Below are positions 1-49,196 of a stretch of DNA of 64,000 nucleotides, piece after piece; positions within the stretch are counted from its first letter, which is position 1; each line of letters begins with the position of its first letter. The notes below the pieces were generated by a model. The model saw only the letters and a list, made by a program, of their open reading frames with translations. It was not told the origin of the DNA and ran no database searches. The stretch is taken from positions 16,750 to 80,749 of the forward strand of contig JAAETT010000050.1 of assembly GCA_024228115.1 (NCBI GenBank), written 5' to 3'. Made by a program: the position numbers and the translations under genes. Origin of the DNA: a bacterium. Lineage in GTDB: Bacteria; Myxococcota_A; UBA9160; UBA6930.

Positions 1-291
1 TCGAATACCGAGGAGATCGAGCTGGTCGAGAAGAGCACGCTTCGGCTTCTCGAGCGGACGCTGCACCCGGCTCCCGGGAAGAAGGCGATGCACGTCGAGT
101 TCACCGCCGACGGAGACAAGGCCCTCGTGAGCGTCTGGCACGTGGATGGGGCGGTCGTGGTCTACGATTCGACCACGCTGGCTGAGGTCGCACGCCTCCC
201 ATACGCTATGCCGGTGGGCAAGTACAACGCTCGAAATCGAACGCGCGATCTGCACGCCGCCGAGGCGCGCAGCGAAAGCGCCTCGGACTGA
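1..291 (+). CDS. C-terminal fragment (5' end outside the window) of a cytochrome cd1 / NirN / NirF-like beta-propeller protein
   Basis: The frame is open from position 1 to the TGA at 289-291. The C-terminus (VVVYDSTTLAEVARLPYAMPVGKYNARNRT) parallels the C-terminus of the NirS in this window (IIVYDDKTLKEKKRITGDWLVTPTGKWNVHNTV). Confidence 0.55.
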   Translation, partial: SNTEEIELVEKSTLRLLERTLHPAPGKKAMHVEFTADGDKALVSVWHVDGAVVVYDSTTLAEVARLPYAMPVGKYNARNRTRDLHAAEARSESASD

Positions 292-719
292 TGGCTTTCA
301 CCTTCCGGTCGGGCCGGGCGCTGGCCGTGATCGCGACGCTGGCGATGGCAGTGGCTGCCGACGCCCGCGACGATGTCCCCGAGGAGCTCTTGCACGCGAA
401 GAACGAGGTGAGCCTCTCAGCGAAACGGGTCGTCTACTTCGCGAAGCAGTTCAAGACCAAATGCGCACGTTGCCACGGGGCCCTCGGAGACGGCGCGGGA
501 ACCGACGCAGAGCAGGACGTCCCGCCGGCCGATCTCACGGATGCCGCCGCGATGAGCCAACGCAGCGACGGACAGCTCTTCTACCAGATCCTGGTCGGAG
601 GCATGCCCCGCTGCGCCATGCCGGCGTTTGGCCCCGAATCCGACCACGGCTGGTCCGAGAAGAAGATCTGGGAGATGGTGGCCTTCGTCCGGCGCTTCTC
701 TGAAACGCCGGACGAATAG
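291..719 (+). CDS. Periplasmic mono-haem class I c-type cytochrome (NirC/c55x-like)
   Basis: Signal peptide (ALAVIATLAMAVAADA), a single CARCH haem motif and a downstream MPAF Met-ligand region. The ATG shares one nucleotide with the upstream TGA. Confidence 0.8.
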   Translation: MAFTFRSGRALAVIATLAMAVAADARDDVPEELLHAKNEVSLSAKRVVYFAKQFKTKCARCHGALGDGAGTDAEQDVPPADLTDAAAMSQRSDGQLFYQILVGGMPRCAMPAFGPESDHGWSEKKIWEMVAFVRRFSETPDE

Positions 720-733
720 GGCAAAGCCGGCCT

Positions 734-1270
734 CTACTCCTTCTCGGCCTTCACGCTCTCGAAGCTCGTGGCCGGTGTCTTCACATTCGTGGCCTGGGGC
801 ACATGGCACATCGTGCAGTTGTACCGGGCCCCCGAGAGATCCTTCCCCTTCGCGTAGGACTCGACCTTGAGGCGCATCGCCTCTCCCGGCTTGCCTTCCA
901 CCATCTTGGCGTTCTCGAAGTGGCTCTCGGTGACGGGGATCTCGTCGTCTTCCGTGACGTTTGTCGGGTGATGACACTCGAGGCACTCGTTCGAATCCCG
1001 CCGGATCGGCAGCATGTCCTCGACGGTGTGGGGGATCCCAGGGGGCGCATCGGGAAACGCGCGATCCAGGAGCTTCGATTCGCCGGGTTCCCCATCGAGG
1101 AATATCGGCAGTTCCTGGCTCGCGAGCGCGCTCAGATCCACATCGCGGAAGTAAACGTCGACGCCATCGTCGACCTCGGCGTTCTTGATGTCTTCCGCAC
1201 TGACGCCCCCGGCCAGAAGGGCCACGAGCATCGTGGTGATGGAAAGGCGGAACCAGATTCCTGACTGCAT
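734..1270 (-). CDS. napB: Periplasmic nitrate reductase di-haem cytochrome c subunit NapB
   Basis: Signal peptide, two CxxCH motifs (CLECH, CTMCH), about 178 aa, last gene of the napDAGHB string. Confidence 0.85.
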   Translation of the reverse strand: MQSGIWFRLSITTMLVALLAGGVSAEDIKNAEVDDGVDVYFRDVDLSALASQELPIFLDGEPGESKLLDRAFPDAPPGIPHTVEDMLPIRRDSNECLECHHPTNVTEDDEIPVTESHFENAKMVEGKPGEAMRLKVESYAKGKDLSGARYNCTMCHVPQATNVKTPATSFESVKAEKE

Positions 1271-1284
1271 GACAGCCTCCTGCG

Positions 1285-2112
1285 CTAGATCTCGGTCGTT
1301 GCCGGTTCGTTACCGGCGCGGATGGGTCGAACATTGAAAGAAAAGACGTCCTGCGGGCAGACCTCGAGGCATCGCGCGCAGTTCGTGCACTCCCCGCCTC
1401 CGACGAATCCCGCCGCGGCGATCTTGTCGAAGTGGAGCACCTGGGGCTCCGGGCAGGCCCGGACGCAATCCCCGCAGTGGTCGCAGCGCTCGGCCGCAAA
1501 GGCCGGTCGCAGCAGGGAGACGCGGCCGATCAGTGCATAGAATGCACCGAGAGGGCAAAGGGATCCGCACCAGCCGTGGCGCAGGACCAACACATCGAGC
1601 AGCATGATCCACGGGATGACGAGCAGCCCGAGGCCCGCTCCAAAGATGATTTCGCGATGGAGCATGGAGACTGGGCTGATCCATTCGAAGGCGGCGACAC
1701 CGAGCACCGCGGACAGCGCGAGCCCGAGCAGCATGAATCCGTACCGGGCCTCACGCGCAACGGGCAATTGGCCGTGGGGGCGAAAGTGTCGCTTGATCAT
1801 GCGACCCAGGTCCGCGACCGGATTGACCGGGCACACCCAGGAGCAGAAGCTTCGCCCGCCAACGAATGCGTAGAACAGCACGACCAGGATGGAGCCCAGC
1901 AGCACGGTGCCCGTGATCAGGTGACCGCTGGCGAGGACCTGGAGCGCGGCATAGGGATCGGACAGGGGGACGGTCCGCAGCACACGCGAACTCGATAGAT
2001 TGCCCGTGAGCCAGCCCAGGTGCATGTGAGCACCCAGCCAGAACAGCAAGAGGATCCCCGCCTGGCTGAGCCGGCGAAGCACGAGGTAGCGATGAGCGAG
2101 GAGCCAACTCAT
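1285..2112 (-). CDS. napH: NapH, membrane-bound FeS quinol dehydrogenase subunit
   Basis: Four TM segments, CSWVCP and CGSLCP motifs, and two C-terminal ferredoxin motifs (CDHCGDCVRACP, CTNCARCLEVCP). The start MSWLL at 2112 overlaps the napG stop (ATGA). The longer ORF 1285..2607 is an upstream extension into napG. Confidence 0.85.
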   Translation of the reverse strand: MSWLLAHRYLVLRRLSQAGILLLFWLGAHMHLGWLTGNLSSSRVLRTVPLSDPYAALQVLASGHLITGTVLLGSILVVLFYAFVGGRSFCSWVCPVNPVADLGRMIKRHFRPHGQLPVAREARYGFMLLGLALSAVLGVAAFEWISPVSMLHREIIFGAGLGLLVIPWIMLLDVLVLRHGWCGSLCPLGAFYALIGRVSLLRPAFAAERCDHCGDCVRACPEPQVLHFDKIAAAGFVGGGECTNCARCLEVCPQDVFSFNVRPIRAGNEPATTEI

Positions 2113-2894
2113 GGCGTCGTGGTGTCCTCCAGCGCATCGAGTGCATCGAGCACCTTGCTCGTATTGTCCTGCCACTCCTCGGGCTGCACGGCATCCGAAG
2201 AAGTGAAATCCCGACTGATCTCTGGCTCTTCCTCCCAGCCGAAGCGGTAGTTGGATCCGAGCCGGCCCTGGGCAAGCGCCGGGGGCAGCACTTTGATCGC
2301 CGCCTCCTCGAGAACGCAGGAGTGCTCGCACATCCCGCATCCCGTGCATGCATCCGAATTGACGACCGGAAGGAAGAAGGCGTGTTTGCCCGTGCGTTCC
2401 TGGGGCCGGAACTCGAGTTGGATCGCCTTGCCCATGAGCGGGCAAGCGCGGTAACACACCTCGCAGCGCAGGCCTTTGAACGCGAGGCAGGTCTCCTGGT
2501 CCGTCAGAACGGCCAGCCCCATTCGGGCGTCCTCGATGGCCGTCTCGGGCACGAGGGAGCCACTCGGGCAGGCCGCCACGCAGGGCACGTCCGGGCACAT
2601 GTGGCACGGGACCTTCCTGGGCTCGAAGGACGGTGTGCCCAGCGACTCCTCACCGGCGGTTGCGAGTTCCAGGGTGTCGTAGGGACACGCCTCGACGCAT
2701 TGGCCGCATTTGGTGCAGGTGGCAAGGAACTCCGGCTCCGCCCGTGCACCCGGCGGCCGGCGCCGGAGGATCGGGCCACGCTGTCCCTCGACCAGTTGGG
2801 CCCAGACGGCTCCGCCCGTTCCCGCGAGGGCGAGATTCCGCCCGCGGAACGCGCCCGCAAGGAACTCGCGTCGGCTGAGGCCCGAGTCGTCCAT
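2109..2894 (-). CDS. napG: NapG, Tat-exported periplasmic poly-ferredoxin
   Basis: Tat motif SRREFL after the start MDDSG (2894, 2 nt after the napA stop). Four Cys clusters: CTKCGQCVEACP, CHMCPDVPCVAACP, CLAFKGLRCEVCYRACP, CTGCGMCEHSC. Confidence 0.85.
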   Translation of the reverse strand: MDDSGLSRREFLAGAFRGRNLALAGTGGAVWAQLVEGQRGPILRRRPPGARAEPEFLATCTKCGQCVEACPYDTLELATAGEESLGTPSFEPRKVPCHMCPDVPCVAACPSGSLVPETAIEDARMGLAVLTDQETCLAFKGLRCEVCYRACPLMGKAIQLEFRPQERTGKHAFFLPVVNSDACTGCGMCEHSCVLEEAAIKVLPPALAQGRLGSNYRFGWEEEPEISRDFTSSDAVQPEEWQDNTSKVLDALDALEDTTTP

Positions 2895-2896
2895 GT

Positions 2897-5497
2897 TCAG
2901 ATCTTGCGCACCCTGGCAGCGCACTTCTTGTAGTCGGTCTCTTTCGAGATCGGACACGTGGCGTCGAGGGTGAGCTTGTTGATCAGGACGTTCTCGTCGA
3001 ACCAGGGTACGAAGACGAGGCCGCGGGGCGGTCGATTCCTCCCCTGGGTCTCCACGCGCACCTTGACCTGACCTCTGCGAGATTCGAGAATCACCTCCTC
3101 ATTGCGTGCGATGCCCCGCGCCTTCGCGTCTTCCGGGTGCATGTCACACACCGCATACGGGACGGCTCGGTTGAGCTCTTCCACGCGCTTGGTCATCGAT
3201 CCGGAATGCCAATGCTCGAGGACACGGCCCGTGCAGAGCCAGAGGTCGTATTCGGCGTCCGGGCTCTCGGCCGGCTCCGCGTAGGGACGGAAGAAGATCT
3301 TCGCCTTGCCGGCGAGGTCGACCTTCTCTCCCTTCAGGCTGCCCTGGGGGATCTTCTTCAGCGCCTTGCCGTAGAAGTTGAATCCTTCGCCGGGCTTGAC
3401 GTAGGGGTCGTACCCCTCCTTGAATCGCCACTGGGTCTCACGCCCGTTGACGACCGGCCAACGCAGACCGCGCACCCGATGATAGGTGTCGAAATCGGCC
3501 AGATCGTGGCCGTTGCCGAGGCCGAATTCGCGGTACTCCTCCCAGAGCGCCTTGTGCACGAAGAAGCCGAAATGCTCGGCCATGTCGTTGGGATGACCCT
3601 CGGCGATCGGGTCGGGCCAGGCCACCTTCTTCATCTTGTCCGTCGCGAAGAGGACATCGAACAAGGTCTGCTCCGGGTCGTATCCCATCGTCTTGGCAGC
3701 AGCGAGCACGTCCGGAAGCTTGCCGTCCTCGAAGCCGTCCGCTTTCAGGCCCGGGAGCGGTTGCTCTCCCCAGACTTCCTTCAGCTTGAAGCGCTTCGAG
3801 AACTCGAGGACCTGCCAGAGGTCGCCCTCGGCTTCGCCCGGTGCCTTCACCTGCTGGCGCCAATGCTGGGTGCGACGTTCCGCGTTCCCGTATGCCCCCC
3901 ACTTCTCGTAGATCATGGCGGTCGGCAGGATCAAGTCCGCCACCTTGGCGGATACGGTCGGGTAGCAATCCGATACGACGATGAAGTTGTCACCTTCGCG
4001 TGCGGCGCGGATCCACTCGCTGGCGTTGGCGAAGTCCTGGAAGGGATTCGTCACCTGCGCCCAGAAGAACCGCACCGATCCGGCGCGAAGAGCCCGCATC
4101 ATGGCCACCGCATGGGTGCCCACCTTCGGATTCAACGTTCCTGCAGGCAGTTTCCAGAGCTTCTCGGATTTCGCCCGGTGGCCCGGGTTCGCGACCACCA
4201 TGTCCGAAGGCAGACGGTGGGCGAAGGTGCCCACCTCTCGCGCGGTGCCGCATGCAGAGGGCTGGCCCGTGAGCGAGAACGCACCGGCGCCCGGCGTCGA
4301 GATCTTTCCGCCGAGCAGGTGGATCATGTAGATCTGCTCGTTGACCCAGGTTCCGCGGGTGTGCTGGTTGAAGCCCATCGTCCAGAAGGAGACGACCTTC
4401 CGCTTCGGGTCGGCGTAGAGATCGGCGAGTTCCAGGAGCTCCTTCTTCGGAACTCCCGAGAGTTCGCTGACATACTCGACGGTGTAGGGCTCGAGCTTCT
4501 GCTTGAACTCCTCGAACGAGATCGCCCAGTGAGCGCCCGCCTTGCTCCGCATCGTCTGGCCCTGCTCGCGCGGATGGTCCGCGGGCAGGCCGTAGCCGAT
4601 GTCCTCCGGGCCAGTTGCGAAGATGCAGTGCTTCTTCACGAAGTCATGGTTGACCGCGTCCTTCTCGATCATGTGCTTCGCAATGAAGTTCATGATGGCC
4701 AGGTCGGTCTGGGGCTTGAAGACGATCTCCAGATCGGCGAGATCCCCGCTGCGATTCCCGAATGTGGTGAGGTTGACCACCTTCGTCTTCGCATGCGTCA
4801 GCTTGCGGTCGGTCACGCGCGACCAGAGGATCGGGTGACACTCGGCCATGTTGGCGCCCCAGGAGACCACGGTATCCGTCACTTCGATGTCGTCGTAGCA
4901 GCCCGGGGGTTCGTCGATGCCGAAGGTCTGGATGAACCCGGCAACCGCGGAAGCCATGCAGTGGCGTGCATTCGGGTCGATGTTGTTGGATCGCACGCCC
5001 GCCTTCATGAACTTGGCGGCGGCGTAGCCCTCATCGATCGTGTACTGGCCCGAGCCGAAGATCGAAACGGCCGAAGGGCCGGACTCCTGGTAGGCCTCCT
5101 TGAACTTGGCGGCCATCACGTCGAAGGCTTCTTCCCAGCTCACCGGGGTGAAATCGCCTTGCTTGTCGAACTTCCCGTTCTTCTTCCGGAGCAACGGACG
5201 CGTCAAGCGGTCTTCGCCATACATGATCTTGGCGTTGAAGTAGCCCTTGATGCAGTTGATGCCGCGGTTGACGGGGGATTCGGGGTCGCCCTTGACGGCC
5301 ACCACGCGCCCCTTCTTCGTCGCCATCATGATCCCGCAGCCGACTCCGCAGAAACGGCAAACGGATTTATCCCATTTCCATCCCGCTTCGAGCGCCTTGG
5401 CCTTGGCCTGGGCTTCTGCCGGCACCCACATTCCCATGCTGGTTGCGGCGGAGGCTGCAACGGCGGTCTTCAGAAAACTACGACGCGTTTGTTCCAT
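2897..5497 (-). CDS. napA: Periplasmic nitrate reductase catalytic subunit NapA (molybdopterin, [4Fe-4S])
   Basis: Tat signal [11 protein letters not shown]-terminal CRFCGVGCG...C cluster, about 867 codons of Mo-bisMGD oxidoreductase sequence. I chose the start at 5497 (AGAGGG SD 4 nt upstream); the ORF track's 5527 is a GTG further upstream. Confidence 0.95.
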
Positions 5498-5682
5498 GGT
5501 GCCCTCTCTCGTCATACGCGCGCTCACGAGCCGGACGGCTCGGCGCGTCTCCTATCAAAAGCAAGGATCGCGCCAGCGGAGAGTGGCTGTGGCGGGCTCT
5601 CAGCCCCCATTTCGAGCGTGGTGCGGCGCAGGGCCCCGGTCGATGCGGAAGCAAGCCTCAGTTGGCTGCAACCTGGCGCCGG

Positions 5683-5928
5683 CTATTTGCCGGCCTCCTC
5701 GTCTACGAAGTGTTCGACCATCTCGGCGAGGATGACGTTGGGGATCTCTCGAAGCTCGAGGATACGTGCCGTGGCCTCATTCGTGGAAGCGGCCTCGATC
5801 GTCGCGATGATTCGCCCGCTCTCATCCTCCACGTGGTGGACGTCCGCCCACTCGTGGGCATTGACGGCCGCCCGGGTTTCGTCGATATGCTCGGGACGTG
5901 TCGTTACCAGGATGGCTGAAATCATCAT
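5683..5928 (-). CDS. napD: NapD, NapA Tat-signal-binding chaperone
   Basis: 81 aa, begins MMISAILVTTRP (the typical NapD ISSLVV-type beginning), sits immediately upstream of napA. Its ATG overlaps the stop of the WD40 gene (ATGA). Confidence 0.75.
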   Translation of the reverse strand: MMISAILVTTRPEHIDETRAAVNAHEWADVHHVEDESGRIIATIEAASTNEATARILELREIPNVILAEMVEHFVDEEAGK

Positions 5929-6932
5929 GGCCGTTCATTCTCCTCGGGATTCTCGATGTTCCATACCAGCACCCGTGCATCGTTTCCGGCGCTGATCAAA
6001 TGGTTTCCGCCCGACGTGAACGCGAGGGCCTGGATGGGCGCCGTGTGTCCCGCGAGCTGTTCGAGGATCCGGCCCGTCGGCATTTCGATCAGACCGATCC
6101 TGTGATCCTCGAGCGTCGCGGCCAGTCGCGTGCCTGCCGGGTCGATCGCGACAGCGGTGACATAGCGGTCGCCCCGGTAGAGGGTCCGCGGGCTGGGTGG
6201 GTCGACCCTTAGATCCCAGTAGAGAATCTGCTTGTCCTTGCTCCCGCTGACCAACGCTCCCTCGTTCGCCCAGCCCAACGAGAAGACGCTATCCCGATGG
6301 CCCTCCAGCATCTGGAGTGTCCGGCCGCTTCGCGCGTCCACCACCTGGATACGGCTCGAGCGCAACCCGATGGCCACCCGGCTGCGGTCGGGACTCGAGG
6401 CGATCGCATAGATCGGGTCGTAGTCGAGCTGTCTGCGGTAAATCTCCTTGCCGGTGTCGATATCCACAAGCGCGAGTTCTCCGCGCATGCTCCCGAGCAA
6501 CAGGTGCCGGTCGTCCAGGAATCGGCACGCCAGTACGCTGCCGAAGGTAGGCAAGGGGCGAGGCAACGCCGCGGCCGCAGACCCTTCCAGATCGAAGAGC
6601 CAGAGCCGCTCGTCGGAGCTGGCGGCTGCCCCCCGCAGGCCGCCGGGGGAGATGGCGACGCAGGAGACCGTGGCCGGAAGCTCGTGTCCCGGCTCAGGCG
6701 GGAGGGAGAGGAGCGCCTCGAGCGTTGTTCCCTTCCGCCAATCGTAGGCCTCGACGCGCCCCGATTGGGTTGCCACGAGCACCCGGTCCCCGCCGAGTGC
6801 CGCGTCCAAGATCATGTGATCGGCTCGAAAGGCTCGAGACGCCGCTTCGAACTCGCTTCCTTCCGCCCCCGCTGCGCCTGCGAGCCCCGAGAGCGCTAGA
6901 GCCAACGCGAGCCCTCGCGAGAACGGACTCAC
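5925..6932 (-). CDS. Secreted WD40-repeat beta-propeller protein (possibly NapL-like)
   Basis: GH...WD-type repeats (GHRDSVFSLGW...LYWDL; GHTAPIQALAF...VLVWNI) and a Sec-type signal (LALALALSGLAGAAGAEG). The proposed GTG start at 6932 overlaps the NrfD-like stop (GTGA). The annotated ORF start at 7280 would overlap the upstream gene by about 350 nt. Confidence 0.7.
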   Translation of the reverse strand: MSPFSRGLALALALSGLAGAAGAEGSEFEAASRAFRADHMILDAALGGDRVLVATQSGRVEAYDWRKGTTLEALLSLPPEPGHELPATVSCVAISPGGLRGAAASSDERLWLFDLEGSAAAALPRPLPTFGSVLACRFLDDRHLLLGSMRGELALVDIDTGKEIYRRQLDYDPIYAIASSPDRSRVAIGLRSSRIQVVDARSGRTLQMLEGHRDSVFSLGWANEGALVSGSKDKQILYWDLRVDPPSPRTLYRGDRYVTAVAIDPAGTRLAATLEDHRIGLIEMPTGRILEQLAGHTAPIQALAFTSGGNHLISAGNDARVLVWNIENPEENERP

Positions 6933-8152
6933 GTCCGCCGATACCCGAGCTCCCCAAGCGTGATGGCGATCGAGATCTTGGCCATGAACGTGAAGCTGAG
7001 AAGTCCCACGCCCCAGACGCCTGCACCCACCATGAGCTCGTTCAAGCTCGGTGTGTATCGATAGACCTCTCCGATGACATCCGGCGTCAACCCGGGCAGC
7101 AACAGGCCGAGTCCCTTCTCGACGTAGACCCCCGCAACGGCCAGCACGCACCCCACGAGGAGGAAGCGGATACGGTTGCGAAGGGCGGGGACGACGAAGA
7201 TGACGAACGCCGTGACGTTGCACGTCAACGCGAATATGGAGTAGCCCGCAATGCCGTAGCCGTCTTCCAGACCAAACCATTGGAAGCGAGCATGGATGAC
7301 GTGATGACTATGGGAGTAGAACTCCTTGAACACCTCACACCCGAGGAAGAAGAGGTTGATCGCCATGGCGTAGGCCAGCAACTCGCCGATCTTGCGCAAC
7401 GCGGCGCCCGAAATCTGGACCGGACTGACCTTCCGAAGGATCTGGAAGATCAGCACCAGCAATGCGGGGCCGGAGCAGAAGGCGCTCGCCAGGAAGCGGG
7501 GTGCCAGGATGGCGTCATTCCAGAACGGTCTGGCTTTGAGTCCCATGAAGAGGAACGCGGTCACCGTATGGATGCTGATGGCCAGGGGAATGGAGAGGAA
7601 GATGATTGGCATGATGAAGGACGGATTGTACTTCCGCCCCGTGTAGCTCATGAACACGAGATAGGTTGCGACGAAGAAGTTGAGGACGAAATAGGCGTTG
7701 AGAACGAGGACATCCCATACGAGCAACGAGTAGGGAAAGTTCGGCGTGCCTACGCCTGGCATCATATGCCAGACTTTTTCGGGGCGCCCGATGTCGACGG
7801 TTACAAAGAGCATGCACATGATGATGGCGGAGATCGCCAGCAGTTCGCCTAGCAAGGCGACCTCGCGAATGGGTCCCCAGTTGTAGATGTAGGCAGGAAT
7901 GATCAGGATCACCGCTGCTGCGGCCACTCCGACCAGGAATGCAAAGTTGCCGATGTAGAAGCCCCAGGAGACCGGGTCGCGCATGTTGGACGTGACCAAC
8001 CCGAAGCTCGCCTGGTTGACGAAGGCGTAGAGCCCGCCAAGGATCATCAGGAGCAGCAAGCCTACCCAGAGCATGTACCCGCGGCTCCCGCTCGCGACGA
8101 GAGCCACACTTTCCTTGGTGAAATGCCAGAATTCTGCGAGGTATACCGTCAT
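6929..8152 (-). CDS. NrfD/PsrC/DsrP-family polytopic membrane quinol-interacting subunit (about 10 TM)
   Basis: 407 aa, hydrophobic throughout, directly downstream of a Tat-FeS NrfC-like gene. This is the typical NrfCD/PsrBC pairing. Confidence 0.85.
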   Translation of the reverse strand: MTVYLAEFWHFTKESVALVASGSRGYMLWVGLLLLMILGGLYAFVNQASFGLVTSNMRDPVSWGFYIGNFAFLVGVAAAAVILIIPAYIYNWGPIREVALLGELLAISAIIMCMLFVTVDIGRPEKVWHMMPGVGTPNFPYSLLVWDVLVLNAYFVLNFFVATYLVFMSYTGRKYNPSFIMPIIFLSIPLAISIHTVTAFLFMGLKARPFWNDAILAPRFLASAFCSGPALLVLIFQILRKVSPVQISGAALRKIGELLAYAMAINLFFLGCEVFKEFYSHSHHVIHARFQWFGLEDGYGIAGYSIFALTCNVTAFVIFVVPALRNRIRFLLVGCVLAVAGVYVEKGLGLLLPGLTPDVIGEVYRYTPSLNELMVGAGVWGVGLLSFTFMAKISIAITLGELGYRRT

Positions 8153-8164
8153 GCCGGGTTCTCC

Positions 8165-9094
8165 TCAGCCGTAGAAGTAGAAGAACTTGGGCCGCGTGGC
8201 GAGTTCGGATTTCAACACGAAGGTCCGCTTGTGTTTCAGCAGGTAGGAGATCTCGCTATCTGGATCGAGAAGGTTCCCGAATTTGCGCGCTCCCACCGGG
8301 CAAGCCTCATGACATGCCGGGTAGCGTCCGTCTCGGACTCGCTGGATGCAGAAGCTGCATTTCTCGACCACTCCGCGTGAGCGCGGCACATTTCCCAGCG
8401 GGTGGATGTTCGTGTTCACCTCGTCCGCCGGGATCGTGGGCGCGGCCCAGTTGAAATGCCTCGCGCCGTAGGGGCACGCCGCCATGCAGTACCGGCAGCC
8501 GATGCACCAGTCGTAGTCGATCACCACGATGCCGTCGGGCTCTTCCCAGGTTGCCCCGGTCGGGCAGACGTTGGTGCAGGGCGAATCCTCGCATTGCTGG
8601 CATGCAATCGGGAGGTACACCATGCCCTCGGCGGGTGCTTGCTCGTGCTCGTAGTACGGGTTCCCTTCGTCGAGTTCGAAACCGCGTACCACGCGTTCGC
8701 GCTCGAATTCGAGCACCCGGATCCATTGGATCTCCGGATCGCGGGATTGATTGTTCTCCTGGACGCAGGCATCGACACAGCGCCGGCAGCCGATGCAGCG
8801 CGAGATGTCGAGGCCGTAGCCGAAGAGAGTATTGTCGACCGGGCCGGTGGCCTGGACATTGAAAGACTTGCCAAATTTCTTCTCGTACTTCCGAGCCATC
8901 CGATCCTTGAGCGCTTCGATCTCCTCGTCGGACATCCGCCGAAAGTTCTTCTGGAAGAACGTCTCGAAGTCGAACGCCTCGGCGGCGGCGGGGACGCCGG
9001 CGGCCGCGCCCACCCCAGCGGCCGTCGTGCGCAGGAACTTTCGTCTGGACGCGCCCTTGGCGTCGAGGTGTTCGTCCCGTTCAGGGTTCTTCAC
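8165..9094 (-). CDS. Tat-exported 4x[4Fe-4S] NrfC/PsrB/HybA-like ferredoxin subunit
   Basis: GTG start at 9094 preceded by GGAGGA. Tat motif SRRKFLRTTA. Four Cys groups: CIGCRRCVDAC, CQQCEDSPCTNVCP, CIGCRYCMAACP, CSFC...CHEACP. Confidence 0.85.
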   Translation of the reverse strand: MKNPERDEHLDAKGASRRKFLRTTAAGVGAAAGVPAAAEAFDFETFFQKNFRRMSDEEIEALKDRMARKYEKKFGKSFNVQATGPVDNTLFGYGLDISRCIGCRRCVDACVQENNQSRDPEIQWIRVLEFERERVVRGFELDEGNPYYEHEQAPAEGMVYLPIACQQCEDSPCTNVCPTGATWEEPDGIVVIDYDWCIGCRYCMAACPYGARHFNWAAPTIPADEVNTNIHPLGNVPRSRGVVEKCSFCIQRVRDGRYPACHEACPVGARKFGNLLDPDSEISYLLKHKRTFVLKSELATRPKFFYFYG

Positions 9095-9713
9095 GATCGG
9101 TTTCCTCCGGCTCGACGTCGGGCTGCCAGGTAACCATGGAAGGCGGAACCGGAGGCGGCTTCGGCTCGATCGGTTTGAACTTCGGCGAATGCGGGTCGTG
9201 GCAGGCGACGCAGGTCCAAACCTCCTTGGCGCCCCACCAGTGGCCCGTGCGTTTCCCATGCACGCCGGCCTTCCACTCGTCGAGGCGCTGGCCATGGCAT
9301 TGGGTGCAGAGCTTCCAGGACTCCTCGAACTCCACGAGGGTTCCGTTGGAGAGGCGGAGGCTGTCGCGATCGCCCGTATCGTGGCAGCGCAGGCACCAGA
9401 GGTCGCCGTGGGCGAGCGCGGTCTCTTCGTGATCGTCCTCGAACTCGCGCTGCGTCGGATCCGTCGGCTCACCTTCGTGGCAATCGTTGCAAGGCGCGTA
9501 GTCGTCATTCATCTCGGGCGGGGGAAGCAGTACCGGCAGAGGCTCAGGCGGCAGCGTCCTGCTCGGGTAGGAGCGGGCGACATCGGGACCGAAGGCGCAG
9601 CGGACCGAGAGCAGTCCAAGAACCAGAACGACGGCCAACCCCAGGACCACCCAGGTGGCTGCTCCTCCAGGCTGGGATTGATCGTCGGCGCCCCCCGGGT
9701 CGTCGTCCACCAT
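9081..9713 (-). CDS. Membrane-anchored tetrahaem cytochrome c (cytochrome c3-family-like)
   Basis: One N-terminal TM (WVVLGLAVVLVLGLLSV) and four CxxCH motifs (CNDCH, CLRCH, CTQCH, CVACH). The stop overlaps the NrfC-like start by 14 nt. Confidence 0.8.
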   Translation of the reverse strand: MVDDDPGGADDQSQPGGAATWVVLGLAVVLVLGLLSVRCAFGPDVARSYPSRTLPPEPLPVLLPPPEMNDDYAPCNDCHEGEPTDPTQREFEDDHEETALAHGDLWCLRCHDTGDRDSLRLSNGTLVEFEESWKLCTQCHGQRLDEWKAGVHGKRTGHWWGAKEVWTCVACHDPHSPKFKPIEPKPPPVPPSMVTWQPDVEPEETDREEP

Positions 9714-9715
9714 TG

Positions 9716-10321
9716 TCAGTCAGCCTCGTCCTCGGCCATCGGGTCGTAACCCTCGGGGACCGGATGTGCGATCTCGGCGACTGCCTTGTCGTAGTCGAAG
9801 CCGGTCGTGGTCCCGTCCGCGAGCGTGTACTTCCCCGGATCCCAGGCCGGGCTCTCGTCGTTGTGACAGGTCGTGCAGACCTCGGCGCTTTGGAGGACCA
9901 GGCCATTTTCCACCGCGAGATCACGATCGATCATGATCTTCTTCTTGCGGTATTTCGTTCCCGCCCCGTGGCAGGCCTCGCACTGCACCCCATCTTCGAT
10001 CTTGAACTTCATCCCGAGACGTTCTGCGGGAACACCGTACGCCGTGACGTGGCACTTCACGCAGGCCTCGTCGGTGGTCGGGTCGGCCACACCTGCTTCG
10101 GTGGCCCACTCCTTTGCTTGTTCCGAGGAGAGGGTCTGGAACGCCGTGGCGTGGGTCGTCTTTTCCCACGAGCCGATCTGGTTGCCGATCGGTTCCTTCT
10201 TGTGGCAGGACCGGCACTTCTTGACGCCACCGTATTTGTGCTCGCCCGCCGGGCCGCCCGCGAAGGCAGGCCCGGCGAGGAGGCACATCATGGCGACGGC
10301 GATCGTCATCATCCGAAGCAT
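9716..10321 (-). CDS. Soluble periplasmic tetrahaem cytochrome c (c554-like multihaem family)
   Basis: Signal peptide (MMCLLAGPAFAGG) and four CxxCH motifs (CRSCH, CVKCH, CEACH, CTTCH). Lies 24 nt downstream of nirS and 2 nt upstream of the next cytochrome gene. Confidence 0.85.
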   Translation of the reverse strand: MLRMMTIAVAMMCLLAGPAFAGGPAGEHKYGGVKKCRSCHKKEPIGNQIGSWEKTTHATAFQTLSSEQAKEWATEAGVADPTTDEACVKCHVTAYGVPAERLGMKFKIEDGVQCEACHGAGTKYRKKKIMIDRDLAVENGLVLQSAEVCTTCHNDESPAWDPGKYTLADGTTTGFDYDKAVAEIAHPVPEGYDPMAEDEAD

Positions 10322-10345
10322 GGTTTTCTCAGCTCTCCAATCGGC

Positions 10346-11974
10346 CTAGTAGATGTCGTGCACGGTGTTGTGCACGTTCCACTTGCCGGTCGGGGTGACG
10401 AGCCAATCGCCCGTGATCCGCTTCTTCTCCTTCAGGGTCTTGTCGTCATAGACGATGATCTCGCCCTTCTTGTCCCAGACGGAGGTCCAGACCTCGTTGC
10501 CTTCCTTGTTGTACTCGAAGTGAACGATCTTGCCGTGCTCCGTAGCCTTCCAGCAGTTGGGCCCGTCGTCGAAAGAGGCTTTCTTGAAGACGCAGATCTT
10601 CTGGTTGTCGCCCTCTTCCTTGGCGATGGTGCTGTCCACCCAGATGTTCTCGCTCTCCGGATGCGTCTTCAGGAACAGCCCCGGCCCCATCGTCTCCTGT
10701 TCGCGAACCACCTTCCATGCGTGGTCGGGATGGCCCGCAGGATCGGAGCCGAAGACCGTGATCTTGCCCTCGCCCAGGTGGGTGGTGGCACTCACGGGGC
10801 CAAATTCAGGATCGACCCAGTTTGCGCCGCGTCCCGGATGAGGCTTTACGCCCGTCTCGAATTTCGCGACGAACTTCTTTTCCTTCGTGTCGATGACGAC
10901 CATCTGGTCACGCATGTTGGCCGCGATCAGCAGGTAGCGCTTGGTCGCATCCCAGCCACCATCGTGGAGGAACCGCTCGGAAGCGATCTGGGTCATCTTG
11001 AGATTGTCCAGGTCGGAGTAGTCCACCAACCAGACCATTCCGGTTTCCTTGATCGCTACGACCCACTCCGAGTCCGCGTGGGACGCGACGATCGTCGCAA
11101 CCCGGGGCTCCGGGTGATACTCGTTCGTGTCATAGGTCGACGAGCGTGTGGAGATGACCTTCTTCGGCTCCAGCGTCTGTCCGTCGAGGACGACCATCTG
11201 CGGCGGCCAGTAGCAGCCCACGACCGCGAGAGAGTCCTCGAAGTCGCCCTTCGGGCCCTTGTACTTGGACACGTCGATCGAGCGGGCATCCAGGCACGTG
11301 CGCACGGAGGCGACGACCTTGGGCTTGTCCGAGTAGAGATCGATCAGGTTGACGACGCCGTCGCGGCCGATCGTGTAGAAGTATCGGCCTGTCGCCGAGG
11401 CACGGAAGATGTGCACGGCGAACCCGGTATCGAGTACTTCGACGAGTTCCTTCGTGTCTCCATCGATGATCGCGCCCTTGCCGGCATCGCGAAGGATGAA
11501 GCCGAAGTAGTTCTGGATGTCCCGGTCATGCTCCGGCTTCGTCGGCCGAGCCTCGACAGGAACGATGACCTTGTGGCTTTCCGCCATCGCCTTCAGGCCC
11601 ATCTCGGGCGGAATCGGAGCCGGAATCTGGACGAATTTCGCCATCAGCGCCGTCTCGGCCTTCGTCATTTCACCGGTTCGACCCCAGCCGGGCATGCCGG
11701 CCTCGGTCCCGTCGAAGATCACTTCCTCGAGCTCGGGGAGGGTCTTCTTCAACATCTTCTCGTCGCTGATGTTGGGGCCCGTCGCTCCCTTGCGGAGGGC
11801 GCCGTGACATCCCGAGCATCGGTCGAAATAGATGAATTCGGCCTTGTCGAAGTCCTCTTCGCTCAGCTTCGGTGCGGCTTCGGCGCTTACGACCTGTGCG
11901 GCCAATGGCACCCATGCCATCAGGACAAGGCAGCTCAACGCGTTCAACCACCAGTTGGAATGAATTCGGCTCAT
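10346..11974 (-). CDS. nirS: Cytochrome cd1 nitrite reductase NirS
   Basis: Signal peptide, N-terminal haem c domain (CSGCH), about 430-aa d1 beta-propeller with typical blocks (GRYFYTIGRDG, RVATIVASH, HPGRGANW, TPTGKWNV). GGGAGA SD lies before the ATG at 11974. Confidence 0.95.
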   Translation of the reverse strand: MSRIHSNWWLNALSCLVLMAWVPLAAQVVSAEAAPKLSEEDFDKAEFIYFDRCSGCHGALRKGATGPNISDEKMLKKTLPELEEVIFDGTEAGMPGWGRTGEMTKAETALMAKFVQIPAPIPPEMGLKAMAESHKVIVPVEARPTKPEHDRDIQNYFGFILRDAGKGAIIDGDTKELVEVLDTGFAVHIFRASATGRYFYTIGRDGVVNLIDLYSDKPKVVASVRTCLDARSIDVSKYKGPKGDFEDSLAVVGCYWPPQMVVLDGQTLEPKKVISTRSSTYDTNEYHPEPRVATIVASHADSEWVVAIKETGMVWLVDYSDLDNLKMTQIASERFLHDGGWDATKRYLLIAANMRDQMVVIDTKEKKFVAKFETGVKPHPGRGANWVDPEFGPVSATTHLGEGKITVFGSDPAGHPDHAWKVVREQETMGPGLFLKTHPESENIWVDSTIAKEEGDNQKICVFKKASFDDGPNCWKATEHGKIVHFEYNKEGNEVWTSVWDKKGEIIVYDDKTLKEKKRITGDWLVTPTGKWNVHNTVHDIY

Positions 11975-12231
11975 GATCTGGGTCTCCCTGGTTCGATGGG
12001 CTGGATCGGTGCAACTCCTATGCCCGCATGCTCCTCCGCTCGCTGGTCGGGAGGGCCAATCCAGAAAGCCCAGCTTTGATGGGCATTCAGGCCATCAAGG
12101 AGATGGAAATGGGCCCCGGGGAGGGCCCGGCCAGTTGCCTCCGGGCGAGGAAGAACGACCCGGAATAACCGGTAGTGGGTCGAAATGCAGCAGTCAGCCA
12201 CTTCGCGCGGCCGATCGAGGCCAGCTCGGGC

Positions 12232-12246
12232 TGGCATTGCGTTTGC
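12232..12246 (+). promoter_or_regulatory. Candidate sigma54 -24/-12 element (TGGCAT-N5-TTGC) upstream of the DksA/TraR-type gene
   Basis: TGGCATtgcgtTTGC has consensus GG-to-GC spacing and lies about 60 nt upstream of the ATG at 12306. No cognate activator site was identified. Confidence 0.35.
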
Positions 12247-12305
12247 GTCTGGACCCAGGTGGGCCTTCGAAGTGGGCTCCGCTTTCAGTGGGGGTTTTGG
12301 GCACC

Positions 12306-12623
12306 ATGGTTTCAGTCGAAGCACATCAGAAGAGGCTCGAGGAGCGACGCCGGAAGATCGGTCGCCGGGTCGGGCGGATCACCGATGATCTGCGCCGCAC
12401 CCCGGATCCGGATTCAGAGGAACGGGCCACGGAGGCGGAGAACGACGAAGTCCTGGAGGGCCTCGACGCCGCGGGCCGGCAGGAGTTCGATGCCATCGAA
12501 GCGGCACTCTTGCGAATCGCTGCCGGTACCTTTGGCACCTGCGCCCAATGCGGCGGTGCGATCGACGAGCGCCGTCTCGAAGTGATTCCGCACACGCCAA
12601 CCTGCGTCGATTGCGCCAGCTGA
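12306..12623 (+). CDS. DksA/TraR-family C4 zinc-finger protein
   Basis: 105 aa, coiled-coil-like N-terminal part, CAQCG-x17-CVDC zinc ribbon at the C-terminus. Confidence 0.75.
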   Translation: MVSVEAHQKRLEERRRKIGRRVGRITDDLRRTPDPDSEERATEAENDEVLEGLDAAGRQEFDAIEAALLRIAAGTFGTCAQCGGAIDERRLEVIPHTPTCVDCAS

Positions 12624-12677
12624 CATCATTTTTCAGGCCCCGACATGTTCGACCGGAATCTTGATTCCCGTGCCGGT

Positions 12678-13865
12678 CTAGCCTTCGATCCCGTCGACGC
12701 GGTACCCGCCCGCGAGGTCGATTTCGAAACCGTGTTGGCGCAGTAGATCTTTGGCGATGGTGAGTTGTTGGATTTCACTCGTTCCGCCACCGACCGTCCA
12801 GAGCTTGATATCGCGGAACAACCGCTCCGGAGCATGCTCTCGGAGATAACCCGCGCCGCCCATGATCTGCATCGCGTCGAGCGCGGCACTGGCGGCCTTT
12901 TCGGTCGCATACCATTTGGCGGCACTGACTTTCCGCTCCGTCAGGTCTCCGTCCTTTTGTGCACGGATCAACTCGAACATCGAATTGCGAACGTTCTCGA
13001 GGGAAACGTACATACGGCCGAGTTTCTGTTGTGTGAGCTGAAACGCCGCGATGGGTTTTCCGAACTGAACCCGCTGGGTCGCATGCCTGACCGCTTCTTC
13101 GAGGCTGCGCTCGATCACACCCAGACACATCGCGACGATGACCGCGCGCTCGCCGCTCAATGTCTGTTCCGCAGTGGCGCGGGCGGGGCGATCCGGATCT
13201 CCCAGGAGATTCTCGCGGGGTACGCGCACGTCGTCGAGGAAGATGTCGCCCGTGGGAGAAGCATGCATGCCGAATTTCTGCAGCGGCGGCCCGGTCGTCA
13301 GGCCGTCCGTTCCGCGTTCTACGACAACGGGATAGATGCGTCGTTTGTCGCGCGAATCGCCTCCCTCGAGGCGTGCATAGATGAGCAGCACCTCGGCTTC
13401 CGGAGCGTTGGAGGAGAAAGCCTTGCTGCCATTCAGCACGACCTCGTCGCCCTCGATGCGCGCAGTCGTTTTCAGGGCAAAGGCGTCGGAGCCACTCTCA
13501 GGCTCGGTCAGCGCCCAACAACCCGCTTTCTTCAGCGAGAGCACGGGCATGCCGCAGCGCTGGATCAGTTCGGCGGAGCCTCGGGTGAGGATCGTCGCTC
13601 CGCAGCCGAAATTCGAAACGACGGAGAGCGCAAGACCCGGGCTCACGCGGGCGAGTTCCTTGGAGATGATGGCCGGGACAGCCGGGTCGGCGATGGCACC
13701 GGAGGTGATCAACCCCTCGATGTCGAGGGCATCGGACATTTCGCCCATGATTTCGAATGGCGAGAGGCTGCCGGCTTCGAGTTCGGGGATGCGTGGCTCG
13801 ATTTCGCGATTGCAGAAATCGCGGATCACGGACTCCATGACTTGTTGGGTTTCGTCGAATTCCAC
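12678..13865 (-). CDS. Acyl-CoA dehydrogenase family protein
   Basis: ACAD N-terminus (VEFDETQQVMESVIRDFCNREIEP) and C-terminal ...GGTSEIQ motif. GTG start at 13865 is preferred over the ORF-track start at 13913. Confidence 0.85.
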   Translation of the reverse strand: MEFDETQQVMESVIRDFCNREIEPRIPELEAGSLSPFEIMGEMSDALDIEGLITSGAIADPAVPAIISKELARVSPGLALSVVSNFGCGATILTRGSAELIQRCGMPVLSLKKAGCWALTEPESGSDAFALKTTARIEGDEVVLNGSKAFSSNAPEAEVLLIYARLEGGDSRDKRRIYPVVVERGTDGLTTGPPLQKFGMHASPTGDIFLDDVRVPRENLLGDPDRPARATAEQTLSGERAVIVAMCLGVIERSLEEAVRHATQRVQFGKPIAAFQLTQQKLGRMYVSLENVRNSMFELIRAQKDGDLTERKVSAAKWYATEKAASAALDAMQIMGGAGYLREHAPERLFRDIKLWTVGGGTSEIQQLTIAKDLLRQHGFEIDLAGGYRVDGIEG

Positions 13866-13965
13866 AATTCCCCCTGGGCGTTCCTGCGCAGAGCGCAATC
13901 GGGAAGAGCGCAATCATACTCATCTCCGCCGACTGGCGGGTTTCTCCAGCCGAACGGATCTGGCC

Positions 13966-14997
13966 CTAGGTGTGAAAGGTCTCGGCGATTGCGGTTGCGT
14001 AGAAGAACGCCTTCTCCGGGCCGAGGCCGTACGCCGGGGGGACGATGCAGATCGAATCGGCCAGGCCATCGAGCTTGCCGATCCGCTCGCGCACCTTTTC
14101 GGGCTCTCCGACGCTGACGAAGGCGCGCACCATTTCGTCGGGAACCAGGTGCGCGACGCTCATGTAGTCGCCTCGTTGGACACCCTCCTGGAGCTTGCGC
14201 GCGACATCGAGGAAGCCGTGTGCCTCGAAGAAGGATTCGTATTGCTTCACGCCGCCGTAGAACGCGATCGTCGGCCGTGAATCCTCGATGGCCTCGGCCT
14301 CGTTGGGATTGGGCGCCGCCCAGGGCCAGATATTGACCTCGATGTCGCTGCGGCCCCGGCCGGCGGCTTCGAGAGCCCGGTCGAGTTCCGGAGCCATCGA
14401 TTCCTTTGCCCACTCGATCGACCACATCGGGTGGCCGATCAGGCCGTCCGCGACCTGTGCCGCCATCCGGACCATCGGGGCTCGTAGGGCGGCGACCCAG
14501 ATTGGAATCTCCTCGCGCAGCGGCGCTGCCGTCGGCTGGAGTTCCTTGAAATCCGCCTGGTAGTACTCGCCTTCGAAGGGCTCGAGCCCCTTGTGAGCAC
14601 CGCTCACGATGTGGCGAATGGCTTCTACCGTTTCCCTCAGGTGCGTGACGGGCTTGTGCACGGGTGCGCCAAAGACTCCGTGGGACCATGCTTGCACACT
14701 CGCGCCGACGCCCAATGTGAAACGTCCACCGGAGATCCGATCCATGTCGATGGCGGCCATGGCCGTCTCGAAGGGGCTTCGGGCAGCCGCGATGGCGATG
14801 CCACTGGCCAATTGCAAGCGCTCCGTCACACCGGCCGCGACAGCCAGGGGTAGGAAGGGTGGGCCCATGACCTGCGGCGCGAAGCAACCATGGATTCCCC
14901 TGGCTTCGGCCTGGCGGGCCATTTCGACGAGAATCGGGGCGGGGAGCGGCTGCAGCACACTCCAGTGTCGCGGGCTCGAGGGTTCGCTGTTCGTCAT
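13966..14997 (-). CDS. Luciferase-like (LLM class) flavin/F420-dependent oxidoreductase
   Basis: 343-aa TIM-barrel LLM-type sequence (GRFTLGVGAS..., IWVAALRAPM...). Confidence 0.75.
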   Translation of the reverse strand: MTNSEPSSPRHWSVLQPLPAPILVEMARQAEARGIHGCFAPQVMGPPFLPLAVAAGVTERLQLASGIAIAAARSPFETAMAAIDMDRISGGRFTLGVGASVQAWSHGVFGAPVHKPVTHLRETVEAIRHIVSGAHKGLEPFEGEYYQADFKELQPTAAPLREEIPIWVAALRAPMVRMAAQVADGLIGHPMWSIEWAKESMAPELDRALEAAGRGRSDIEVNIWPWAAPNPNEAEAIEDSRPTIAFYGGVKQYESFFEAHGFLDVARKLQEGVQRGDYMSVAHLVPDEMVRAFVSVGEPEKVRERIGKLDGLADSICIVPPAYGLGPEKAFFYATAIAETFHT

Positions 14998-15027
14998 CGA
15001 TTGCCTCCCGGCGTTGTCATGCAGGCT

Positions 15028-15672
15028 TCAGTTCTTCCGACTCATCCGTTCGATCCCACCGAGGAAGAGCTCGGTGGCAAATGTGGTTGCCTTCTCCACG
15101 TCGGCCTTCGTGCGTACGCAATGGATCGCCAGCTCACTCGCTACACCGATGGCGGCCAGGGCGACGAGATCGAAATCCATCGCGGGCACGACGCCCTCCT
15201 TCGCCTTGGAGCGAAGATCCTTCGTGAGATCGGCGATCGCCGGCTCCAATGCCTTGTGAGACATCAGTTCTTCGATCTCTCCGGCGTTGCGTGTCAGCAG
15301 CGCCAGGACCATTTCGTCCTCGACGAAGATTTCGAAGCAGATCCTGAACGCGGATCGCAGCAGGTCTTCCAGCGTTTCTGCGGCTTCGCGGGCTTCGTGG
15401 ACGCGTCTTCGGAGTTCGATCTGGAAATCGCCGATGAGCTCGTGGAGCAGGGCTTCCTTGTCGGGGAAGTAGTTGTAGAAGGTGCCGCTGGCCAGGTCGG
15501 TACGGCGAGTGATGTCACGCACGGTCGTGGCACCGAATCCCAGTTCGCAGAAGGCATCGTGGGCAGCCCGGAGGATTTCCGCCCGATTGCGCGCGGCATT
15601 GCGTGCACGCTTGCCGATCTCGACCTCGCCGTCTTCCTCGTGGCGGCGCGACGGCGTACTCCGTCCGCTCAA
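15028..15672 (-). CDS. TetR/AcrR family transcriptional regulator
   Basis: N-terminal HTH (RNRAEILRAAHDAFCELGFGATTVRDITRRTDLASGTFYNYF). The start overlaps the upstream ligase stop. Confidence 0.85.
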   Translation of the reverse strand: MSGRSTPSRRHEEDGEVEIGKRARNAARNRAEILRAAHDAFCELGFGATTVRDITRRTDLASGTFYNYFPDKEALLHELIGDFQIELRRRVHEAREAAETLEDLLRSAFRICFEIFVEDEMVLALLTRNAGEIEELMSHKALEPAIADLTKDLRSKAKEGVVPAMDFDLVALAAIGVASELAIHCVRTKADVEKATTFATELFLGGIERMSRKN

Positions 15673-40989: not shown

Positions 40990-41087
40990 TACGCGGAGCG
41001 CCTTGAGGTGATTGTAGGCTCCGCGCTTGTAGGGACCACAAGTCGATAAAGAGATCTCTAGGTCGATAGATCAGACAGGAGTCTAGG

Positions 41088-49193: not shown

Positions 49194-49196
49194 AGA

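Follow-up and report, generated by a model that had tools for sequence, protein, structure and literature searches.

An eleven-gene string that probably joins a nirS unit head to tail with a WD40-napDAGHB operon in a Myxococcota_A bacterium

In Pseudomonas stutzeri, the nirSTBM genes encode NirT, a membrane tetrahaem cytochrome that is a dedicated, bc1-independent quinol route to the cytochrome cd1 nitrite reductase NirS, and an extra soluble cytochrome is encoded alongside. Periplasmic nitrate reductases (Nap) have four recognised types of operon, one of which is napDAGHB. Cbc4 of Geobacter sulfurreducens (CbcS-CbcT-CbcU, GSU0068-0070) consists of a tetrahaem cytochrome with an N-terminal anchor and a flexible linker, a four-cluster iron-sulfur (Fe-S) protein and a membrane subunit (2025 preprint). 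The preprint regards Cbc4 as a quinone-cytochrome c oxidoreductase to which no role has so far been assigned; its cytochrome, CbcS, can reduce the soluble periplasmic cytochrome PpcA. Complexes with NrfD-type subunits are known in both directions of electron flow, and ion translocation has been proposed for them. Here we describe a string of eleven genes, among them nirS, napDAGHB and genes for a Cbc4-like set of proteins, in a 64,000-nt stretch of DNA from a bacterium of the Myxococcota_A (GTDB lineage UBA9160; UBA6930; contig JAAETT010000050.1). We refer to this whole stretch as the window, and all coordinates of the string are given in window numbering.

The string most plausibly arose as a head-to-tail join of two units, a nirS unit with its own quinol-oxidising line and a WD40-nap operon with an internal promoter. 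We put the probability of this reading at roughly 0.6. Eleven intact open reading frames (ORFs) lie between 734 and 11974, all on the minus strand, with the coordinates given in a preliminary description that had been made from the sequence alone; family matches agreed with the identities proposed there. In the order from nirS to napB, with MHC1 and MHC2 denoting two multihaem cytochromes and Tat the twin-arginine translocation system, the genes are:

10346-11974, minus strand: nirS, cytochrome cd1 nitrite reductase (542 aa, Sec signal, one CxxCH motif; PF02239)
9716-10321, minus strand: MHC1, soluble periplasmic tetrahaem cytochrome of the c554 family (201 aa, Sec signal, four CxxCH; PF13435)
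9081-9713, minus strand: MHC2, membrane-anchored tetrahaem cytochrome (210 aa; transmembrane anchor, proline-rich linker, four-haem domain)
8165-9094, minus strand: NrfC/DsrO-like Tat-exported Fe-S protein (309 aa, GTG start, four [4Fe-4S] motifs)
6929-8152, minus strand: NrfD/DsrP-like integral membrane subunit, predicted to interact with quinol (407 aa, about 10 transmembrane helices; PF03916)
5925-6932, minus strand: periplasmic seven-bladed WD40 beta-propeller (335 aa, GTG start overlapping the stop of the NrfD-like gene; Pfam WD40)
5683-5928, minus strand: napD, Tat chaperone of NapA (81 aa; PF03927, 62.8 bits)
2897-5497, minus strand: napA, catalytic subunit of periplasmic nitrate reductase (866 aa, TRRSFLK Tat motif; NCBIfam NF010055)
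2109-2894, minus strand: napG, periplasmic ferredoxin of the NapGH quinol dehydrogenase (NCBIfam NF007012)
1285-2112, minus strand: napH, membrane subunit of the NapGH quinol dehydrogenase (NCBIfam NF007013; four transmembrane segments)
734-1270, minus strand: napB, dihaem cytochrome subunit of NapAB (PF03892, 78 bits; two CxxCH)

The junctions from nirS to napB, recomputed from the sequence, were 24, 2, -14, 12, -4 (GTGA), -4 (ATGA), 185, 2, -4 (ATGA) and 14 nt, identical to the earlier values. Nine of the ten boundaries overlap or nearly abut, and a Shine-Dalgarno-like purine run lies ahead of most genes of the string. The G+C content is about 64%, and the closest named relatives of the proteins are from Deltaproteobacteria/Myxococcota metagenome-assembled genomes (MAGs). 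The proteins have generic names in GenBank, for example 'polysulfide reductase NrfD' (entries include MCP5055441 for NapA, MCP5055444 for the NrfD-like protein and MCP5055447 for NirS).

The reductases belong to known families. NirS scored 407 bits against Cytochrom_D1 (PF02239) and also matched PF13442. It has a haem c domain with a CxxCH motif followed by a d1 propeller, and it was far closer to solved NirS structures (1bl9 from P. aeruginosa, E 6e-166; 1aof from Paracoccus, E ~1e-165) than to the paralogues NirN (6rtd, E 6e-45) and NirF (E 3e-8). All five nap products exceeded the cut-offs of their families: NapA with 1441 bits (NCBIfam cut-off 904), NapG with 320 (269), NapH with 328 (234), NapD with 62.8 (Pfam cut-off 28) and NapB with 78 (25.1). 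The genes napD, A, G, H and B stand in that order, and neither napC nor napF is present in the string. There were only five ORFs with CxxCH motifs in the entire window, four of them in the string; since the fifth is a small cytochrome c (291-719), the window encodes no NapC or NirT. The nap part is thus of the NapGH type without NapC and NapF, as had been proposed, and the proposal that the string has its own quinol entry points also stood, there being two separate predicted ones, NapGH and the NrfCD-type complex. The same five genes make up known napDAGHB operons; in contrast to these, the operon described here has an additional WD40 gene in first position, sigma-54-type elements, and a join behind nirS.

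Comparison of gene order in relatives (designated by L numbers) showed that the two units occur both apart and joined. The unit nirS-MHC1-MHC2-NrfC-NrfD was found alone in six lineages (L002, L004-L007 and L093), followed by convergent cytochrome c and nirN-like genes. The unit WD40-napDAGHB was found alone in four lineages (L086/87, L088/89, L090/91 and L095), with unrelated genes and a spacer of 50-670 nt upstream. L093 and L088 are parts of a single metagenome contig on which the two units are convergent and about 10 kb apart, separated by nirN, nirJ, nirF, nirDL, a porin gene, a sirohaem-type methylase gene and an Rrf2 regulator gene. Judged by gene order, the layout of the window is what this unjoined state would become with the six-gene nap operon inserted in the short spacer between the NrfD-like gene and the convergent cytochrome c gene. 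The full eleven-gene order was present in five lineages: that of the window, L082/83 (NrfD-like protein 90% identical), L084/85 (82%), L094 (72%) and L096 (65%). Because the order recurs in four further lineages, as the comparative survey suggested in the preliminary description now shows, it is not due to chance.

Additional arrangements were found in other relatives. In the complete genome CP070734.1 (L092, 3.67 Mb), the nirS unit is intact and the nap genes have decayed; behind the NrfD-like gene (13450-16150 of that locus) are napD, an unrelated 539-aa ORF without a Pfam match, two fragments of napA and a fragment of napB. An intact nirS unit beside nap fragments means that the nirS unit does not depend on nap. 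In L003, napDAGHB is followed by MHC1-MHC2-NrfC-NrfD, and in L097, WD40-napDAGHB is followed by MHC2-NrfC-NrfD. L053 has NrfD-napD-napA without the WD40 gene, and in L050 and L067, napAB without napGH is divergent beside MHC2-NrfC-NrfD. The preliminary description had regarded the string as a single nitrate-to-nitric oxide (NO) module. The separate lives of the two operons in relatives, and the loss of nap beside an intact nirS part in CP070734.1, speak against this. It had also noted that nir and nap are normally separate regulons. The order is absent from well-studied denitrifiers, and our literature searches returned no relevant paper describing an nirS-linked NrfCD cassette or such an order, which is not proof that none exists.

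Other features of the nap loci were noted in passing. Upstream of the nap string in L097 (1-7825) are a gene for a second, divergent molybdopterin enzyme (926 aa) and then two NapG/NapH-like pairs on its strand; an NnrS-like gene and a small cytochrome gene lead into the WD40-nap string. In L086 (16512-20888) and L095 (14570-17026), where nap stands alone, a flavoprotein/Fe-S gene and genes for a Rieske/cytochrome b/multihaem c complex come after the nap genes, a hint that nap is coupled to a bc-type complex in some relatives.

The candidate internal promoter of the proposed join was identified from matches to the sigma-54 pattern TGGCAC-N5-TTGCW. Two candidate elements stand at informative positions:

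12010-12025, minus strand: candidate sigma-54-type promoter element GGGCATAGGAGTTGCA (GG-N10-GC), 36 nt before the nirS ATG, two mismatches
5560-5575, minus strand: candidate sigma-54-type promoter element TGGCGCGATCCTTGCT in the napD-napA gap, 62 nt before the napA ATG, one mismatch

In an alignment of the nirS upstream region from three lineages, 43% of the columns were invariant and the longest invariant run, the 16-nt GGCATAGGAGTTGCAC, holds the first element. Similar elements are at the same position before nirS in L092, L094 and L096. The element in the gap is conserved in L082, L084 and L085, and an analogous one is present in the gap of L096, an independent lineage with the joined form. 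Elements with 0-1 mismatch were also found 5' of the WD40 gene in L088 and L090, where the nap operon stands alone, and in L097. Because there is no intergenic room between them, nirS through napD are likely to be co-transcribed. The conserved element in the gap indicates that napAGHB can probably be transcribed on its own as well. We propose that, in the window lineage, an insertion placed nap immediately after the NrfD-like gene, so that the sigma-54-type promoter of nirS most likely reads through at least to napD, and that the gap element would drive napAGHB separately.

Several other regulatory candidates were looked for and not supported. The 185-nt gap has no plausible small ORF, and its predicted fold is no more stable than those of shuffled sequences (z -1.2). 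A riboswitch or other RNA in the gap was considered, and no Rfam match was found at E<=1 in positions 1-13000. A possible FNR/DNR box before nirS (TTGAT-N4-ATCAA with two mismatches, 12076-12089) is not conserved in orthologues, and such matches were only mildly in excess of chance, with 17 in the window versus 9.4 expected. Sigma-70 promoters and intrinsic terminators were at or below chance, with none at gene boundaries of the string. A comparison of the regions upstream of nirS, napA and the genes for quinol-dependent NO reductases (qNor) revealed no convincing shared activator sites; TCATAAC repeats were confined to one qNor gene, which is linked to a NorR-like gene.

The preliminary description had taken the tight junctions to mean co-transcription and translational coupling throughout. 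The packing is tight enough for coupling, and this part stands; the candidate element in the napD-napA gap argues against a sole reliance of napAGHB on read-through from nirS. In its strongest form the claim would be that all eleven genes are obligatorily transcribed together and make up a single integrated nitrate-to-NO unit, coupled throughout and under a single regulon. The close spacing of nine of ten boundaries, the lack of space for a promoter at the NrfD/WD40 junction, the overlap of napD and napA in L094 (where no internal sigma-54 element was found) and the conservation of the order in five lineages are all consistent with this. We nevertheless consider it unlikely, given that both halves occur alone in relatives, that the nap half has decayed beside an intact nirS half in CP070734.1, and that sigma-54-type elements are present in the gap of both the window lineage and L096.

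The other component of our reading is the quinol-oxidising line, whose core is encoded by the MHC2, NrfC-like and NrfD-like genes. MHC2 has one N-terminal transmembrane helix (residues 19-37), a proline-rich linker and four CxxCH motifs. It matched NrfB weakly (2ozy, E 0.005), its match to NapC/NirT (PF03264) was below the cut-off of that family, and the NCBIfam DsrJ model gave no match to it at E<=0.01. The NrfC-like protein has a Tat motif (SRRKFL) and four Fe-S motifs, and matched Fer4_11 and related Pfam families. Its NCBIfam scores were 182.6 bits for DsrO (NF045797), below the cut-off of 200, 160 bits for QrcC, and 119.6 bits for NrfC, far below the cut-off of 377.6; its matches in the PDB were ArrB, PsrB and ActB. 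The NrfD-like protein has about 10 transmembrane helices and scored 137 bits against PF03916. It scored 366.8 bits against the NCBIfam model for DsrP (NF045798), above the equivalog cut-off of 350, and only 16.4 bits against that for NrfD (cut-off 347.6). The best solved structure was ActC (6f0k_C, E 1e-11).

These parts resemble those of several described complexes. The core has the Cbc4-type architecture, with an anchored tetrahaem cytochrome with a linker, a four-cluster Fe-S protein and a membrane subunit encoded in that order. The three subunits are alike and the gene order is identical, a likeness of architecture judged by comparison with the published description. Cbc4 is discussed for extracellular electron transfer, with the triheme PpcA as its partner, whereas here the partner would be a c554-like tetrahaem cytochrome and the genes are joined to nirS (and nap). 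The three-subunit architecture is also that of the periplasmic DsrJOP half of DsrMKJOP: the NrfD-like protein is above the DsrP cut-off, the NrfC-like protein is nearest to DsrO, and an anchored multihaem cytochrome takes the place of DsrJ; however, it has four haems where DsrJ has three, and the context is nitrogen-oxide respiration. No DsrM, DsrK, dsrAB or dsrC was found nearby, and no cytochrome b or CCG domains were found in the string or flanking genes. Because DsrM and DsrK are missing and there are four haems rather than three, the core is not a Dsr complex. The best solved matches of the NrfD-like and NrfC-like proteins, ActC and ActB, are subunits of alternative complex III (ACIII). 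Here there is a single NrfD-like gene, there is no molybdopterin domain in the 309-aa Fe-S protein, and neither the pentahaem ActA nor ActD-F was found. With NrfABCD, the core shares the weak likeness of MHC2 to NrfB; there is no NrfA, and the NrfC and NrfD scores are far below their cut-offs. By these gene contents and scores, the core is neither Nrf nor ACIII.

An NrfD-like profile was run against a single genome for each species; the eleven proteins were compared with the resulting loci by tblastn, and the context of exact proteins was looked up. At least 581 candidate loci for the profile were confirmed. The order MHC2-NrfC-NrfD was conserved in 74 of the top 80 loci, and in at least 74 species, the remaining six loci being cut by contig ends. 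These loci span Acidobacteriota (including cultured Geothrix), Planctomycetota, Myxococcota, Gemmatimonadota, Bacteroidota and others. In approximately 65 of the 80, including that of Fe(III)-reducing Geothrix, no reductase adjoins the core. A general partner enzyme of the core was sought by clustering neighbours over the 80 loci; this gave only regulators, membrane proteins and housekeeping genes, and was noisy from spurious high-GC ORFs. In one locus (L009, 5614-11194), from a MAG labelled Bdellovibrio, the MHC2-NrfC-NrfD trio is duplicated in tandem. An NrfD-like homologue in a Myxococcota MAG (P0035) has already been named 'DsrMKJOP subunit DsrP'. The DsrP label on NrfD-like proteins without dsr genes nearby is likely a systematic mis-annotation, and with the NrfD-like protein above the equivalog threshold, pipelines may wrongly call sulfur metabolism.

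MHC1, the soluble cytochrome between NirS and the core, matched Cytochrome_C554 (PF13435) with 71.5 bits (cut-off 20.8, E 1.2e-19) and the structure of cytochrome c554 from Nitrosomonas europaea (1bvb, E 4e-11). It is a tetrahaem protein, with four CxxCH motifs and the signature of the c554 family, and its own family comprises 566 proteins, all without names. Among the best 80 loci and the context look-ups, MHC1 was immediately 5' of MHC2 only where nirS or nap adjoins. This restriction is as expected of an adaptor between a membrane complex and a soluble nitrogen-oxide reductase.

From these parts, we propose the following path of electrons. The cofactor-less, 10-helix NrfD/DsrP-like subunit would oxidise quinol at the periplasmic face, and the Tat-exported NrfC/DsrO-like subunit would then relay the electrons over its four Fe-S clusters to the anchored MHC2. 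Soluble MHC1 would carry them from MHC2 to the haem c of NirS and then to haem d1, where nitrite is reduced to NO. The nap line would run from the NapGH quinol dehydrogenase to NapB and NapA, with NapD as chaperone. With two qNor enzymes encoded in the window, the reductions of nitrate, nitrite and NO would each draw directly on the quinol pool. What we observed directly are gene identities, topology signals, junctions, synteny and motif conservation; from these we infer the direction of electron flow, the partnership of MHC1 with NirS, what the WD40 protein does and that the promoters are active. On this basis, quinol is most likely oxidised by the core, with the c554-like cytochrome as the carrier of electrons to NirS. 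A broader statement is more tentative, and taken as a whole we think it rather unlikely: that the trio, found in hundreds of species, is a quinol:cytochrome c oxidoreductase, possibly ion-translocating, and that here, with the c554-like shuttle, it is the physiological donor of NirS, controlled by sigma-54 and fused to nap.

The distribution of the core also fits a less specific role, in which MHC2-NrfC-NrfD (with MHC1) is a general quinol:cytochrome c oxidoreductase, a substitute for bc1 or ACIII that fills a periplasmic pool for Nir, Nap and other enzymes. The many loci without an adjoining reductase favour such a role, as do the positions of the core after nap in L003 and L097 and beside napAB without NapGH in L050 and L067, and the fact that Geobacter Cbc4 feeds periplasmic cytochromes. 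Against this, the cassette is joined to nirS in at least 11 lineages of the clade, the gaps being 2-24 nt in that of the window, and Nap here already has its own NapGH. We consider a general role improbable for the window.

Two further explanations have far less to recommend them. We give little credence to the opposite direction, in which the complex would act as a Qrc-like cytochrome c:quinone reductase, or to a function in extracellular electron transfer, with nirS as no more than a neighbour. The QrcC model does give the NrfC-like protein 160 bits, metal reducers have many members of the family and NrfD-type complexes work both ways, but with high-potential terminal reductases nearby quinol oxidation would be the thermodynamically sensible direction, and there is no periplasmic oxidising enzyme (hydrogenase or formate dehydrogenase) in the string or its flanks. 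Cytochrome c554 of N. europaea has one five-coordinate haem and a reported NO-reducing activity. It is very doubtful that MHC1 is likewise catalytic rather than a shuttle and binds or reduces NO from NirS: it is a member of the c554 family, and its only invariant residues outside the motifs over 21 homologues (H57, H186 and M130) leave room for one haem without a sixth ligand, but H28 is present in the majority of the homologues, so that all four haems could be six-coordinate, the structure model is a low-confidence basis for haem ligation (predicted local distance difference test, pLDDT, 61), and two qNor genes are already in the window.

A number of points count against a nirS unit with a dedicated quinol-oxidising line joined to a nap operon with its own promoter. 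The direction of flow in NrfD-type complexes is not readable from sequence, Qrc for example working as a quinone reductase. The monohaem cytochrome c at 291-719 may be the actual donor of NirS. The module adjoins nap in other genomes and so may not be dedicated to NirS. Matches to the sigma-54 pattern numbered 24 in the window versus 21 expected, that is, chance, so the promoter calls rest on position, orientation and conservation only. No such element was found upstream of nirS in L002, L005, L006, L007 and L093. In L094, napD and napA overlap and the internal element was not found, so the string there may be a single transcript.

The preliminary description had listed the WD40 gene between the NrfCD part and napDAGHB. 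In relatives, it is the first gene of stand-alone WD40-napDAGHB operons, and from this context we conclude that it travels with nap and not with the NrfCD module. Automatic callers start the protein at an internal ATG and give it 295-297 aa. The GTG at 6932, which the preliminary description had chosen, adds 40 residues that resemble a signal peptide (MSxFSRGLALALALSGLAGAAGA) and are conserved at the protein level in three orthologues, and most WD40 homologues of 320-345 aa also have a signal-peptide N-terminus; the longer start is therefore the better one. The truncated calls also hide the 4-nt overlap with the NrfD-like gene (5925-6932, minus strand, in the window; 11221-12225 in L082; 11221-12231 in L084). 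The family comprises about 86 clusters with 43-100% identity, all without names, below which only generic WD40 proteins were found. AlphaFold2 modelled it, with a pLDDT of 89, as a G-beta-like propeller of the canonical seven-bladed form (TM ~0.8), and the matches of the model in the PDB were to generic G-beta-like WD40 proteins. From its gene linkage, this lineage-specific WD40 protein is probably an accessory or scaffold of Nap. NapL, encoded in the epsilonproteobacterial operon napAGHBFLD, is counted among maturation factors, and deletion of napL has only a moderate effect. The WD40 gene is likewise directly 5' of napD and its product is a cofactor-less periplasmic protein; this likeness is one of position and location only, and no NapL model of Pfam or NCBIfam matched the WD40 protein. 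NapL is a beta-propeller.

Upstream of nirS is a divergent gene for a DksA/TraR-type C4 zinc-finger protein (12306-12623, plus strand), kept there in three lineages and with its own conserved sigma-54-like element, TGGCATTGCGTTTGCG (12232-12247, plus strand). Beyond it are genes of fatty-acid metabolism. At the other end, the small monohaem cytochrome c gene (291-719, plus strand) runs towards napB from behind a nirN-like gene truncated at the window start; the product of the cytochrome gene may be a NirC/NirM-type partner of NirS or NirN. One qNor gene (56935-59322, minus strand) encodes NorB with a haem-free cytochrome-c-like N-domain and is divergent from a gene for a NorR-like activator (GAF and sigma-54 AAA+ domains; 59423-60991, plus strand). 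The spacer contains three TCATAAC/GTTATGA repeats and a candidate sigma-54 promoter with one mismatch, TGGCCCGTGACTTGCT (59327-59342, minus strand), a layout of the classical NorR type. The other qNor gene (41070-43403, plus strand) is behind a gene for an Rrf2-family (NsrR-like) regulator (39874-40638, plus strand); Rrf2 genes are also divergently upstream of nirS in L092 and L096. Among the window ORFs that were scanned, namely those of the string, those flanking it and the larger ones elsewhere, none is a nosZ. The window also encodes a multicopper oxidase (37480-39240, minus strand), hemA (glutamyl-tRNA reductase; 43714-45105, plus strand), a CcsA-like cytochrome c assembly protein preceded by a 436-aa ORF without a Pfam match (49194-51545, plus strand), and a 613-aa ORF without a Pfam match (22347-24188, minus strand).

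Little is known of how cd1 NirS is supplied with electrons beyond the model Proteobacteria, a question that bears on the energy yield of denitrification. If the broader statement above is correct, NirS would have a third kind of donor system in addition to NirT and to bc1 acting with c551 or azurin, and every step from nitrate to N2O would bypass bc1. A widespread, uncharacterised membrane complex that lies directly behind nirS, and beside nap in relatives, would gain a concrete and testable partner. The separate, intermediate and decayed forms of the two units show how two respiratory operons become one string.

Compared with known systems, the nap half is an ordinary napDAGHB system with one further gene in front. 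In the nirS half, a complex of the Cbc4/DsrJOP type appears in a new context; its parts are of known kinds and do not make up a new kind. As with NirT, a membrane tetrahaem cytochrome is linked to nirS, and MHC2 has a weak NapC/NirT-like match, below the cut-off. Whereas NirT itself oxidises quinol, that step is assigned here to a separate NrfD/NrfC pair. Among known solutions, that of NirT in P. stutzeri comes nearest to the nirS half in function, although the two are made of different parts.

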